Source of the DNA: a virus
Virus record (IMG/VR): IMGVR_UViG_3300027844_002282
DNA length: 64,000 bases
Reading direction: 5' to 3' (one strand)
Shown: positions 28,061 to 57,136 of the stretch, in pieces
How the letters are laid out: the number at the start of each line of letters is the position of its first letter
Numbering within the stretch: the first letter of the stretch is position 1
Notes under the pieces: model-generated
The model's database searches: none
The model's input: the letters and a program-made list of their open reading frames with translations, nothing else
What the model was told of the DNA's origin: nothing
Made by a program: the position numbers and the translations under genes

Positions 28061-30496
28061 CTATACTGTTTCAAAAAATTCCGGCTGCTCTTTAACTACT
28101 TTTGCATGTATTTCTTTCAATTTTTCAAGGCCGTATTCCTTTAGCATGTATTCTCCGTCAGGGCCGTAGCCTATGATCTTCTCATATTCATATGCCAATC
28201 TCTTTTCAGAAACCTTCGCGCCGTCAAACAATAATTCTTTATTTCTATGAATCGACTCATCAAGCTCTGGGTCTATAGAATATCCTCTAAGGTTTAATAT
28301 GATCGCCCTCGTAACCATGAGCGGATTAATCGGGATAACAACGTCTGGGTTGAGGATCGGTCTAACAATCTTGGCCTCAATATCATCCATGGCTTTTCCC
28401 GTTATATCGTAGATATTATTGTCAATAAAACTATAAAGTAGACTATTGACGGTAAAGTCTCTGGCATACACGTCTAAGTGAATTGGGGTCGTTGAGATAT
28501 TCTCTTCTCTCATAAGCGGTCTTACACCCTCTGTGAAAATACGTTTTCCACGAAAGTCCATCGATACGCCTTCATACTCATAACTCATCGTTCCAGTTCT
28601 TTGGCTAAATCCGATATCGACAATACCAAGATCTGCCGCAAGAAGACCGCCAAGTTTTTGAACGTTCTCGACTACCGGAGATGTGAAATCAAGATCGTTA
28701 ACCTCAAGGAAATTCTTTGTCGTTGCCAATGTTCTTGGGAATCCACCAACTACGAAACAGTCTTCTATCCCATATGTCTGTGATAATATCTTACACTTAC
28801 TAAGTATCTTATTGATTGTTTCCTTAAGTCTTCCCTGAAGGTTAACAAATGAGTTTACACGATCAATGTTAGATCCAGAGTTTACATTGTCCTCAATTTC
28901 TTTAATATCTTCTAAGTCTTCATCCCCAGTAATCCAAACTACAACTTTATCCTTGAGATTGTCATTCTCAAATATTGCATACGGAAAATCTCCTAATGCG
29001 TCAACAACATGAGGTAAAGCGTCTTCATGAACAATCAGCCTGGCTACATTTATCTTTTTTGACAAAACCATCTTCTTATAATACCCAACCCTTCTCAATA
29101 TTTGAACAATATAATTCTTAGATTCGTTATCTGTCACATTATAAAGAGAGTTGCCAACTGCCCCAGCAGTACCAAAATCGGATCGGCCAGACCAATAAGT
29201 ATCTCTATCGTTCCACTTCTCTGGTCTATTCCTATGTTCTGGTGAAGCAAGGTCAATCTGGATATCATTTTTCCAGTAAGATCTACCAAATCTATCTTTG
29301 GCTATTTTACCCCTACCGTACCTTTCATCATATCTTCTCATCCAATATCTTCTGTCTGAAGATTCTCCGTCGTAATATCCATGGGTGTCAGAAATATCAT
29401 CAGCCTCAAATGGCTCTCTCCAACCCGCATTAAATCCATTTAGATATCCAAAGACGCCACCAATATGCGGGCCACCAACGTTACTTCTCCATGACGCGAA
29501 CTTAATAAGTTTATTTGTCGATGCCGCTTTTTGAATAGGAATAATCAAAGCGTGAGGAAGCTTGTCCATTAACATTTTCTCTAACGTTACAGACTCTGTC
29601 TCAGCAACCCCCTTCTCTTTCCTTTCTTGAGTAAGGTTTTCCTCACAAGTTTTATCTCCCGATTCGTCACCAGTGTGAAGATTGTTTTCAAGAAGGGTTT
29701 CCACTGAGTCATACTTTGTCCCTTCGGTAGCGAATTCTTGAAAGTTAACCTCTTGATTGGATCTCAACACTGTTTCAATTAGACTCCACTGGAACGGGGC
29801 GATCTGAGCCTTCCTATACCAACTATTTTCATTTGAAGCGTGAGTCATTTCCCCTGTCGTTTCAAAAGGCAGGTTAAACCTATTCATCCCCCAAGAAAGA
29901 AGGGAATTTTGCAACTCTTGACATGGGCCTTCGTCCCCACCTTTGGCATGTAAGGCTTCGTGGGCAATAATGGAAGCTAACTGAACTTTTCGAAGGTTGT
30001 TCTTATCATCCTCGGTAATCGTATCTGGATCGGAGTCCAAAATCATTTGGTCAGTAATATCCATGATTCTTGCAATATCGATGCCAATAACGCTTCCACC
30101 TTCAGATTTTTTCTTTTCAAAAAGTCTTCTCATCTCTTCTGTCACTTCTTCTGGATCTTTATCTGGAGAATATGCATATAGAAGATCACTTTCTGAAGGG
30201 CTCTCTGGAATATTAGTTACATAACCAGATCTTTCAAGCTCTTTCTTAACCCTGACCCAATCAACTGTTTCGTTCAATGATGGGTTGAAAACCCCGAATG
30301 CATCTACATCAGTAGAATTGTAAATGTATGCTACATTTTTCAACAGATCTCCCCCAGCAAATTCGTTAACTAACGAAACAGCCTCGGAAGCGCCGGGGAA
30401 TCTCCCGGAAATTTCATCAGAATTAACATTTCCTGAGCCTACGTTCTGCTCAATTGTGTCAACCTTCTGTTCTATCTCTTGCAATTCTGGATTCAT
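28061..30496 (-). CDS. CCA-adding / poly(A) polymerase family nucleotidyltransferase with long N-terminal extension (HEXXH domain plus repeat linker)
   Basis: CFVVGGFPR...NDLDF...ARDFTVNSL class II nucleotidyltransferase head motifs; IAHEALH near the N-terminus. Confidence 0.8.
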   Translation of the reverse strand: MNPELQEIEQKVDTIEQNVGSGNVNSDEISGRFPGASEAVSLVNEFAGGDLLKNVAYIYNSTDVDAFGVFNPSLNETVDWVRVKKELERSGYVTNIPESPSESDLLYAYSPDKDPEEVTEEMRRLFEKKKSEGGSVIGIDIARIMDITDQMILDSDPDTITEDDKNNLRKVQLASIIAHEALHAKGGDEGPCQELQNSLLSWGMNRFNLPFETTGEMTHASNENSWYRKAQIAPFQWSLIETVLRSNQEVNFQEFATEGTKYDSVETLLENNLHTGDESGDKTCEENLTQERKEKGVAETESVTLEKMLMDKLPHALIIPIQKAASTNKLIKFASWRSNVGGPHIGGVFGYLNGFNAGWREPFEADDISDTHGYYDGESSDRRYWMRRYDERYGRGKIAKDRFGRSYWKNDIQIDLASPEHRNRPEKWNDRDTYWSGRSDFGTAGAVGNSLYNVTDNESKNYIVQILRRVGYYKKMVLSKKINVARLIVHEDALPHVVDALGDFPYAIFENDNLKDKVVVWITGDEDLEDIKEIEDNVNSGSNIDRVNSFVNLQGRLKETINKILSKCKILSQTYGIEDCFVVGGFPRTLATTKNFLEVNDLDFTSPVVENVQKLGGLLAADLGIVDIGFSQRTGTMSYEYEGVSMDFRGKRIFTEGVRPLMREENISTTPIHLDVYARDFTVNSLLYSFIDNNIYDITGKAMDDIEAKIVRPILNPDVVIPINPLMVTRAIILNLRGYSIDPELDESIHRNKELLFDGAKVSEKRLAYEYEKIIGYGPDGEYMLKEYGLEKLKEIHAKVVKEQPEFFETV

Positions 30497-48388: not shown

Positions 48389-48545
48389 TAGTATTCTAAT
48401 TAATGAAAAGGAAACCTTTATTTCCCACCAAAAGGAGGATTTTGTGAGAAGCTTTCTTAAAATGACTTGACATCGACCGTTTGTGGTGTATTATAAGCAC
48501 ATTGAAACAAACACATCGACATAAAAGTTTTTCGGAACGAAAGGA
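48389..48545. repeat. 157-bp direct repeat, copy 1 (divergent promoter cassette)
   Basis: Identical to 49287-49443; contains TTGACA-N16-TATTAT (+, 48467-48494) and AAAGG-N17-AGAAT (-, 48393-48419). Confidence 0.95.
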
Positions 48546-49286: not shown

Positions 49287-49443
49287 TAGTATTCTAATTA
49301 ATGAAAAGGAAACCTTTATTTCCCACCAAAAGGAGGATTTTGTGAGAAGCTTTCTTAAAATGACTTGACATCGACCGTTTGTGGTGTATTATAAGCACAT
49401 TGAAACAAACACATCGACATAAAAGTTTTTCGGAACGAAAGGA
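49287..49443. repeat. 157-bp direct repeat, copy 2 (promoter cassette for a two-gene insert)
   Basis: Identical to 48389-48545. Confidence 0.95.
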
Positions 49444-52003: not shown

Positions 52004-52031
52004 TTGACTTTTTTCAAAAGCAGGTTATAAT
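52004..52031 (+). promoter_or_regulatory. Sigma70-like promoter TTGACT-N16-TATAAT
   Basis: Immediately upstream of a tRNA cluster. Confidence 0.7.
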
Positions 52032-52044
52032 ACACTTAACAGAT

Positions 52045-52116
52045 GCCTACGTAGCTCAACTGGAAGAGCACTTCGCTACGAAGAGGTTGCAAGTTCAAAC
52101 CTTGCAGTGGGTACCA
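52045..52116 (+). pseudogene. tRNA-Arg(ACG)-derived gene with a 4-nt anticodon-arm deletion
   Basis: CTTCG-CTA-CGAAG where CTTCG-CT-ACG-AA-CGAAG is expected. Confidence 0.65.
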
Positions 52117-52120
52117 TTTT

Positions 52121-52265
52121 GATAATGTGGCGGAATTGGAATACGCGCCGCTGTAATAGCGGTAGAGAGCAATGGGTTCAACTCCCATTTAAGGTACGGT
52201 TACCGCTTGGCTGTAATAGCTAAGGCAATGTCTCCTTGTGGGTTCGAGACCCATCATTATCATCA
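52121..52265 (+). ncRNA. Double tRNA-Leu(TAA)-like RNA with two anticodon arms and two T-arms
   Basis: GATAATG/CATTATC acceptor, Leu-type D-arm, GCTGTAATAGC twice, T-arms with TTCAACT and TTCGAGA loops. Confidence 0.7.
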
Positions 52266-52461: not shown

Positions 52462-52557
52462 TGTGAGGATTGATTGAAAGTACTATGCTTTCATCAGGAA
52501 AACTGTAAAGTTCCATGGACTTAGCGGCTGGAGGTTCGACGCCTTCTCTCACAGCCA
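52462..52557 (+). ncRNA. tRNA-like RNA with Tyr-type loop and replaced D-arm
   Basis: TGTGAGG/TCTCACA-GCCA acceptor, canonical T-arm, CT-GTA-AA loop, long hairpin in the D position. Confidence 0.6.
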
Positions 52558-52558
52558 T

Positions 52559-52638
52559 AGCGGAAGAGTGGATGTGGATACATAGACCATACCAGCCTCA
52601 TAAGTTGGAGATTGCAGGTTCGACTCCTGCTTCCGCTA
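52559..52638 (+). tRNA. tRNA-Met/Ile2(CAT), no encoded CCA
   Basis: CCAGC-CT-CAT-AA-GTTGG; atypical D-arm; followed directly by a ribozyme. Confidence 0.75.
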
Positions 52639-52709
52639 GATTAGTATAATGACAAGCCTCCACGTGGCACTAATCGGAAACGAACTAACCCTCGGCTAAT
52701 TTGTCATTA
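52639..52709 (+). ncRNA. HDV-like (theta) self-cleaving ribozyme
   Basis: P1 GATTAGT/ACTAATC, P2 TAATGACAA/TTGTCATTA, P3 GCC/GGC, L3 TCCACGT, P1.1 CC:GG, J4/2 GCTAA. Confidence 0.85.
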
Positions 52710-53002: not shown

Positions 53003-53053
53003 GGACAATCGTTCAAAGTTGAATGGTGGATTCGAATCCCACTTGGTCCACCA
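53003..53053 (+). pseudogene. tRNA remnant or minihelix (T-arm plus acceptor ending ACCA)
   Basis: GTGGA-TTCGAAT-CCCAC-TTGGTCC-ACCA with no D or anticodon arm. Confidence 0.45.
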
Positions 53054-57056: not shown

Positions 57057-57136
57057 GGACGCATAGCTTAGTCTGGCTAAAGCGCTTGTATGACACATGC
57101 AAGAGATCGTTGGTTCGAATCCAACTGTGTTCACCA
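57057..57136 (+). tRNA. tRNA-Val(GAC) with 2-nt expanded anticodon loop
   Basis: CTTGT-ATGACACAT-GCAAG (9-nt loop); ACCA. Confidence 0.65.

Follow-up and report, generated by a model that had tools for sequence, protein, structure and literature searches.

Genomic context of the element

The DNA analysed here, a stretch of 64,000 nt referred to as the window, belongs to an uncultured large phage and encodes a portal protein and a large terminase. No record of the phage collection exceeds about 25% identity to the terminase, the best match being an uncultured 485-kb phage (22.6%), and no close relative of it was found in IMG/VR. At approximately 48.8-61.4 kb the plus strand carries an island of at least 20 tRNA or tRNA-like genes together with two GluRS-like genes. 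In this marine giant phage, positions 52121-52262 of the window hold a 142-nt tRNA-Leu with a second, partial tRNA-like module in its variable arm. All components of this structure that the original prediction had listed were read from the sequence where it had placed them (Table 1).

The same DNA was found in at least seven assemblies of ENA and JGI samples, in contigs of up to 153.6 kb. The island is at least 99.96% identical between these assemblies and the element itself is identical in all of them.

The sub-array containing the element begins at 52045, downstream of a promoter-like site. The element starts 4 nt past the CCA of the preceding tRNA-like gene and the next tRNA follows 11 nt on, as would be expected of a gene within a processed array. 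The only ORF overlapping the element is antisense and codes for 50 aa, and a protein-coding explanation was therefore discarded.

Table 1. Positions of the element, its parts and the related features of the island (numbering of the window).
Feature	Position	Strand	Basis or score
Promoter-like site TTGACT-16-TATAAT	52004-52031	+	11/12 consensus match; consensus match alone
tRNA gene ending in CCA, anticodon arm CUUCG-CUA-CGAAG	52045-52116	+	Rfam tRNA model 47.1 bits, four loop bases missing
Acceptor stem, 5' strand GAUAAUG	52121-52127	+	7/7 Watson-Crick with 52255-52261; pair probability 0.96-1.0
U8, G9 and Leu-type D-arm (52130-52146), 3-bp stem GCG/CGC, 11-nt loop GAAUUGGAAUA	52128-52146	+	
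Hairpin 1, at the anticodon position, GCCGC-UGUAAUA-GCGGU	52147-52163	+	Zips to 7 bp and a UAA triloop; z = -3.07 alone
Variable-arm/insert-closing helix, 5' strand GAGAGC	52165-52170	+	Pairs with 52225-52226 and 52231-52234 in the minimum-free-energy fold
Direct repeat GCAATG, copy 1, left border of insert	52169-52174	+	Sequence
Internal T-arm 1, AAUGGG-UUCAACU-CCCAUU	52171-52189	+	Canonical T-loop sequence
Insert in the variable-arm loop, 56 nt: most of T-arm 1, small hairpin, hairpin 2, second GCAATG	52175-52230	+	
Small D-arm-like hairpin GGUA-CGGU-UACC, GG in loop	52193-52204	+	Sequence and fold
Hairpin 2, CUUGGC-UGUAAUA-GCUAAG, carrying the 11-nt block GCUGUAAUAGC of hairpin 1	52206-52224	+	z = -3.08 alone
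Direct repeat GCAATG, copy 2 (52225-52230), and 3' strand of closing helix: GC, bulge AAUG, UCUC	52225-52234	+	
T-arm 2, next to the acceptor, functional T-arm, GUGGG-UUCGAGA-CCCAU	52238-52254	+	Close to T4 tRNA-Leu T-arm
Acceptor stem, 3' strand CAUUAUC (52255-52261), discriminator A52262, then UCA	52255-52265	+	UCA where CCA is expected
Acceptor-closed 92-nt RNA, UGUGAGG/UCUCACA, T-arm GGAGG-UUCGACG-CCUUC, then GCCA	52462-52557	+	No D-arm
80-nt tRNA, ARAGORN 'Cys(aca)', loop UGACACA (G33, C37), ending in CCA	57057-57136	+	Arm zips to 8 bp and an ACA triloop

Analysis of the neighbouring genes yielded no candidate partner protein: informative domains were present only in the two GluRS-like genes and in one FeS-assembly-like gene, and neither a Ro60 (TROVE) domain nor any other informative RNA-related domain was found in the 35 window ORFs scanned. 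A PolyA_pol head domain was identified in the C-terminal part of an 811-aa protein encoded on the minus strand at 28061-30496 (37.6 bits, against a cut-off of 23). This family includes CCA-adding enzymes, and the protein could supply the CCA that the element lacks; it is also relevant to the other CCA-less tRNA-like genes of the island.

An Rfam search gave a theta/HDV-like ribozyme match behind one of the island tRNAs. A match to the HDV-like ribozyme of the F. prausnitzii type spans 52639-52708 (+), directly 3' of a CCA-less tRNA(CAU) at 52559-52638, and is below threshold (33.8 bits, against a gathering score of 44).

The window also contains an exact direct repeat of 157 nt (48389-48545 and 49287-49443), with a promoter-like site, TTGACA-16-TATTAT, in each copy; several of the assemblies break at the second copy. 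The segment 49456-51308, which comprises a GluRS-like gene and a 272-aa ORF, shows 99.3% identity to positions 9193-11290 of contig L263. That contig, of 35 kb, has nothing else in common with the window and lacks a tRNA island, which points to recent exchange of a gene cassette or to a chimeric assembly. An 85.7% identical version of the cassette, adjoining a tubulin gene, occurs in contig L262. The cassette is the only DNA that the window has in common with other phages.

The outer body of the element

The island was scanned for T-arms closed by an acceptor stem. A single closure with 7/7 Watson-Crick pairs had an abnormal length, 141 nt: GATAATG/CATTATC, which directly follows the canonical T-arm at 52238-52254. 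U8, A14, A15, G18G19 and A20a are all found in the D-arm region of the element. The D-arm (UGGCGGAAUUGGAAUACGCG) is almost identical to those of the tRNA-Leu of Synechococcus phage Sf-FS3 and of E. coli and close to that of T4 tRNA-Leu, and the 3' part, UCCUUGUGGGUUCGAG-CCCA, resembles T4 tRNA-Leu. Most of the other island tRNAs encode their CCA, whereas the element reads A-UCA.

When the element was aligned by MAFFT with the tRNA-Leu of T4 and Sf-FS3, both ends aligned and one gap of approximately 58 nt opened in the variable arm. Deletion of positions 52175-52230 in silico left an 86-nt RNA which ARAGORN called as tRNA-Leu(taa); its variable arm is reduced to 18 nt, GAGA-GCAAUG-UCUC, compared with GAG-GCAA-CUC in Sf-FS3. 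The recognition of this core as tRNA-Leu(UAA) identifies the element as a class II tRNA-Leu whose variable-arm loop carries an insert. Both the type of the body, for which the D-arm, A73 and a T-arm similar to those of T4 and cyanophage tRNA-Leu speak as well, and the location of the additional module are thus as originally predicted.

Several features of a class II tRNA-Leu (within Rfam RF00005) are present: a 7-bp acceptor stem on a 5-bp T-stem, a T-loop of the UUCRANN type and the discriminator A73, the contacts U8:A14 and A15:U48, G18G19, A20a, and a 3-bp D-stem. The element departs from the class in its variable arm, which is multi-branched and 74 nt long instead of one hairpin of about 10-24 nt, and in its anticodon arm, which differs from the usual 17-nt arm with a 7-nt loop, U33 and a purine at position 37. 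It also differs in that it was not called by ARAGORN or by Rfam at the gathering score; Rfam gave a weak tRNA match only, at 52150-52196, with a score (16.7 bits) below that threshold. On these features the element would work like a class II tRNA-Leu, and appears to descend from one, except in its anticodon loop and variable arm.

The set of leucine identity elements described for E. coli (PMC9976931) is complete in the element, comprising A73, A15:U48, G18G19, A20a, U8:A14 and the contacts between D- and T-loop. Leucylation requires neither the anticodon nor the long variable arm, and tRNA-Leu variants from which both arms are missing are still charged (PMC9976931). Since the identity elements are present and the two altered arms are dispensable, it is reasonable to expect that the element could be charged by LeuRS.

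Other families of tRNA-like RNA were considered. In tmRNA, which combines a tRNA-Ala-like end with pseudoknots and a tag reading frame, the pair 3:70 would be G3:U70, while in the element it is U:A, and neither the tmRNA search of ARAGORN nor Rfam gave a call. A YrlA-type Y RNA was rejected as well: there was no match to RF02553, and no TROVE domain among the 35 ORFs scanned.

The insert and its origin

The insert is bordered on both sides by the hexamer GCAATG and in the predicted structure forms a four-way junction. Its closing helix continues into T-arm 1 (6 + 6 bp), which is followed by the 4-bp hairpin with GG in its loop, one base, and hairpin 2.

Segments 52147-52189 and 52206-52254 were aligned with each other. 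The score obtained was 35.5, compared with 13.2 +/- 4.9 for shuffled sequences, none of which (0/2000) scored as well, and the two segments align better with each other than either does with the other tRNAs of the island. Three blocks are common to both and occur in the same order: GCUGUAAUAGC, GCAAUG and GGUUC-A--CCCAU. With this signature the insert has the appearance of an internal copy of the segment that runs from the anticodon arm to the T-arm.

The two copies have diverged unevenly. The T-loops differ at three of seven positions and the hairpin stems at six of ten, while the loop block is identical at 11/11 positions; a repeated 11-mer arose by chance in 23 of 20,000 shuffles. Three of the five stem pairs have changed on both sides and are still paired (G.U to U-A, C-G to U-A and C-G to G.U). 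The earlier argument for selection, that the loops are identical and non-canonical while the stems differ, is borne out in that the stems differ through paired changes, which argues for constraint on both hairpins. This supports the view that the hairpins, and above all their loops, may be under constraint, as far as one comparison within a molecule, as opposed to phylogenetic covariation, can indicate.

The minimum-free-energy fold of the complete element reproduces the proposed architecture (z = -2.28; 4 of 200 shuffles were as good). Pair probabilities are 0.63-1.0 for the acceptor stem, the D-arm and the two anticodon-type hairpins, 0.39-0.64 for T-arm 1, 0.57 for T-arm 2 and about 0.5 (0.54) for the small hairpin. 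The helix closing the insert, with a probability of just 0.08-0.38, is the weakest part of the fold. The similarity of the two T-arms is sufficient for each to compete for strands of the other, and the insert alone folds only slightly better than its shuffles (z -1.4 to -1.9).

The exact GCAATG repeats at both borders would also fit a 56-nt insert that is removed or cut after transcription, either like an intron or through cleavage by RNase P or RNase Z of the 12-bp stack of closing helix and T-arm 1, which resembles an acceptor/T minihelix. The product would be an 86-nt tRNA-Leu with a textbook class II cloverleaf, or a nicked tRNA in two pieces. The borders, however, form a 4-nt one-sided bulge and not a bulge-helix-bulge motif, the insert matches no intron or ribozyme family, and the spliced product would keep a non-canonical anticodon loop. 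Removal of the insert is thus very improbable, and an intron-containing or permuted tRNA gene was rejected on the same grounds.

The anticodon-type loops and similar loops in neighbouring genes

U33 and a purine at position 37 are near-universal rules of the anticodon loop. Both rules are violated in both UGUAAUA loops of the element, which have G33 and U37. In addition, positions 32:38 (U-A) and 33:37 (G.U) can pair, and in the predicted folds both hairpins close to a UAA triloop. The sequence TGTAATA was also considered as a promoter element and rejected as a poor -10 match.

The anticodon arm itself is short. G52147 corresponds to position 26 by homology with the tRNA-Leu of Sf-FS3, and the distance from G26 to U44 is 15 nt, 2 nt below the 17 of a normal anticodon arm; hairpin 1 can be read either as 5 bp with a 5-nt GUAAU loop or as 4 bp with the loop UGUAAUA.

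Loops of this kind recur in three other genes of the island. In the gene immediately upstream (52045-52116), which ARAGORN misses, the anticodon arm ends in a CUA triloop or, read otherwise, in a 3-bp stem with the loop CGCUACG (G33, C37). The RNA at 52462-52557, detected neither by ARAGORN nor by Rfam, contains a 12-bp hairpin with a CUA triloop (GAAAGUA-CUA-UGCUUUC) and a second hairpin. The third gene is the 'Cys(aca)' tRNA at 57057. The zipped cores of the three are CG-CUA-CG, UA-CUA-UG and UG-ACA-CA, respectively.

Together with the element, five hairpins in four genes have complementary bases at 32:38 and 33:37, no U33 and a pyrimidine at position 37, while each of the 12 other tRNAs called by ARAGORN in the island has both U33 and a purine at 37. 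Three of the four genes with zipped loops encode CCA, namely those at 52045, 52462 and 57057. Such recurrence is not predicted by random decay; it is predicted by a deliberate class of loop-closed tRNA look-alikes.

A further short RNA may be mentioned here. Positions 53003-53053 (+) have the appearance of a mini tRNA-like end, composed of a short closing stem, the hairpin UUCAAAGUUGAA, the T-arm-like GUGGAUUCGAAUCCCAC and UUGGUCC-ACCA. It overlaps a predicted 49-aa ORF, and its fold is no better than those of shuffled sequences.

The phage would benefit from a working tRNA-Leu(UAA), since UUA and UUG make up 44% of the leucine codons in the long ORFs of the window and no other tRNA-Leu was found in it. 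The element could then be a functional tRNA that reads UUA/UUG, with the insert as a tolerated or accessory appendage and odd loop bases that escape an anticodon nuclease. The call of the insert-less core as tRNA-Leu(taa) is in line with this proposal. Engineered tRNAs whose long variable arm carries a hairpin aptamer still function in translation (PMC7590224), and phage tRNAs have been proposed to evade anticodon nucleases through mutations in their loops (PMC10264068). On the other side, G33 and U37 break rules that 12 other tRNAs of the island obey, the loop can zip at 32:38 and 33:37 in an arm that is 2 nt too short, and the identical loop is duplicated in a hairpin that is unable to reach a codon. 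Decoding of leucine codons by this RNA is for these reasons quite unlikely.

Search for relatives

A covariance search in phage genomes had been envisaged for the original prediction, with homologues that keep the double architecture as its test; no homologue of any kind was recovered, only near-identical copies from the same phage. The search used covariance model R1, which was run on the window, on about 170 phage and metagenome loci and on the 485-kb phage with the nearest terminase (LR745208.1). It returned ordinary class II tRNAs of 75-90 nt only, with scores of at most 54 bits, compared with 186.5 bits for the element itself. The best long matches, from locus L129, proved to be two adjacent tRNAs with no spacer between them.

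Megablast and blastn searches against 50,697 phage records gave only a 24-nt match to a tRNA-Leu D-arm. IMG/VR was scanned with several patterns. Doubled GCTGTAATAGC gave 40 matches, all of them tandem repeats in protein-coding sequence; the loop-T-loop-loop pattern gave two chance matches; and for a pair of GGGTTCRANNCCC motifs spaced by 38-62 nt most matches were tandem tRNAs, besides a small number of unrelated RNAs that are closed by an acceptor and contain a nested T-arm. One of these acceptor-closed RNAs, of 136 nt (L163:3643-3782 (+), CGAGAUG/CGUCUCG), has an internal and a terminal T-arm and is unrelated in sequence to the element.

The combination of a Leu-type D-loop with two T-loops retrieved a tRNA-Leu followed by mini tRNA-like pieces, and that of a Leu-type D-arm with TGTAATA retrieved three truncated tRNA-Leu fragments. 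A truncated 5' fragment of tRNA-Leu (acceptor, D-arm, GCCGUAAUGUAAUACUGUC...) is conserved in three large phage tRNA arrays (L250:9239-9300, L251 and L252).

A pattern scan of metagenomes produced 44 matches, all attributable to chance, from a collection that did not return the source phage and hence was not exhaustive; two pattern scans of prokaryote genomes produced none. Relatives were also sought through the neighbouring genes. The GluRS-like gene led to few relatives, none of which adjoins a tRNA island, the FeS-assembly-like gene to only one more contig (99.96% identical), and a 95-aa ORF to none. Full-text literature searches found no description of a variable arm in which a partial tRNA is nested that brings a second T-arm and a duplicated loop. 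In the data searched the element is a singleton, known from one phage.

A singleton is also what would be expected of a decaying relic, that is, a tRNA-Leu gene damaged by internal duplication and by loop mutations and carried neutrally, whether transcribed or not. The UCA in place of CCA, the weak thermodynamic signal of the insert and the GCAATG direct repeats at its flanks, as expected of illegitimate recombination, would all be accommodated by such a history. Decay would not readily explain, however, that every helix is still paired and the loop block of 11 nt intact when six of ten stem positions have changed, that the acceptor stem is perfect, or that the zipped-loop design is present in three other genes of the island. 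A relic is accordingly rather unlikely, if somewhat less so than a decoding tRNA.

Comparison with known RNAs

The closest known counterparts are the tRNA-Leu(UAA) of T4 (NC_000866, 72370-72456) and the tRNA-Leu of Sf-FS3 (PV340856.1, 179871-179952). The element has in common with them the acceptor/T geometry, A73, the 3-bp D-stem with the AAUUGG loop, the T-arm GUGGGUUCGAG-CCCA, a variable arm of the GAGA-GCAA type and the location in a phage tRNA array. It differs from them by the 56-nt structured insert, the anticodon arm shorter by 2 nt, G33/U37, and UCA instead of CCA.

Oversized and non-decoding stable RNAs are also known from T4, namely species 1 and 2 (rnaC, 139 nt, and rnaD, 119 nt), which have no known function and are encoded where a phage tRNA cluster ends. 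At its 3' end rnaC has a canonical T-arm and an acceptor-like closure that is only partial; the Leu-type D-arm, the second T-arm and the duplicated hairpin of the element are all missing from it. Homology was not detected: blastn against the phage collection, in which T4 is included, gave only the tRNA-Leu D-arm, and the fold of rnaC shares only the 3' T-arm. By its excess length, its place in a phage tRNA cluster and its probable lack of decoding, the element can be grouped with these RNAs, though not as their homologue.

The element can likewise be placed with giant-armed look-alikes from other phage contigs. Two acceptor-closed examples, L016:8731-8865(-) of 135 nt and L040:10120-10268(+) of 149 nt, carry an insert of approximately 60-75 nt at the variable-arm position and have, as the element has, lost U33 (loop CAUUUAA, A33). 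They differ from it in being of the Lys type with a class I D-arm, and in having an unrelated insert with neither an internal T-arm nor a duplicated anticodon-type hairpin. The aptamer-tagged tRNAs mentioned above also resemble the element in bearing a hairpin module on a long variable arm; in contrast to it, they are man-made, have a normal anticodon loop and continue to decode (PMC7590224).

A tRNA look-alike as the preferred reading

With both "anticodon" loops pinched shut, the element most likely imitates a tRNA and does not read codons. Our leading, still tentative, reading is that it is a non-decoding derivative of tRNA-Leu, possibly leucylated, which shows one closed hairpin twice and binds or titrates a factor that recognises tRNA.

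By this account, the phage would have derived an RNA of about 142 nt from a class II tRNA-Leu(UAA) by housing a duplicate of the segment from the anticodon arm to the T-arm within the variable-arm loop. The outer body would retain what RNase P, 3' maturation and LeuRS require, namely the stack of the 7-bp acceptor and 5-bp T-arm, A73, U8:A14, A15:U48, G18G19 and A20a. The RNA could then be cut from the tRNA array as its neighbours are, by RNase P and repair of the 3' end, and possibly be leucylated. Pairing at 32:38 and 33:37 would close each loop to some three to five bases. The loss of U33 and of the purine at 37, together with this closure, is what leads us to read the element as a non-decoding tRNA mimic. 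The same closed hairpin would be displayed twice on one tRNA scaffold, and the most plausible role would be to bind or soak up a factor that recognises tRNA, such as a host nuclease, a modification enzyme or a phage protein. The 3' UCA in place of CCA counts against this reading and may equally be a mark of decay.

A more elaborate version, which we regard as doubtful, is that of a 'Siamese' tRNA: two tRNA-like bodies, each with an elbow of T-loop and GG-loop of its own and a closed anticodon-type hairpin, would share one variable-arm helix and serve as bivalent decoys or adaptors within a four-gene toolkit of loop-zipped mimics. The original prediction, too, had envisaged a bivalent mimic with two elbows, such as a decoy for a nuclease or sensor; a decoy role of this kind is conjectural, and the weakly predicted closing helix makes a second elbow uncertain. 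Mimics with zipped loops that end in CCA might then be charged or bound by the tRNA enzymes and kept off the ribosome in a contest between phage and host over tRNA.

Phage tRNA genes have been tied to defence and counter-defence in connection with PARIS, retron Eco7/PtuAB, PrrC, VapC and bacterial Schlafens, and these cases concern tRNAs that still decode (PMC11464382, PMC11555353, PMC10264068, PMC13056530). Should the look-alike reading be true, an RNA with the marks for maturation and leucylation and with an anticodon loop that is closed and shown twice would represent a different strategy, either stoichiometric mimicry or the holding of charged tRNA off the ribosome. It would also imply that there is room in a variable arm for an entire additional tRNA-like module, which bears on the evolution of tRNA by duplication and on tRNA engineering. 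Genes of this kind escape the standard tRNA finders and are therefore likely to be under-counted.

Two observations concern the duplicated loop itself. A kissing interaction between the two identical loops was rejected, as judged by eye: the loops could form no pairs other than A-U and G-U, and these would flank a mismatch at the centre. The UGU-containing loop together with its closing C contains the sequence CUGUAA, which resembles the core of the tRNA-Tyr loop with the register shifted by one base. In tRNA-Tyr this core motif is read by tRNA-guanine transglycosylase and by colicin E5. A tRNA-Tyr identity for the element was itself rejected, as CUGUAA is out of register with the stem and the D-arm belongs to the Leu type.
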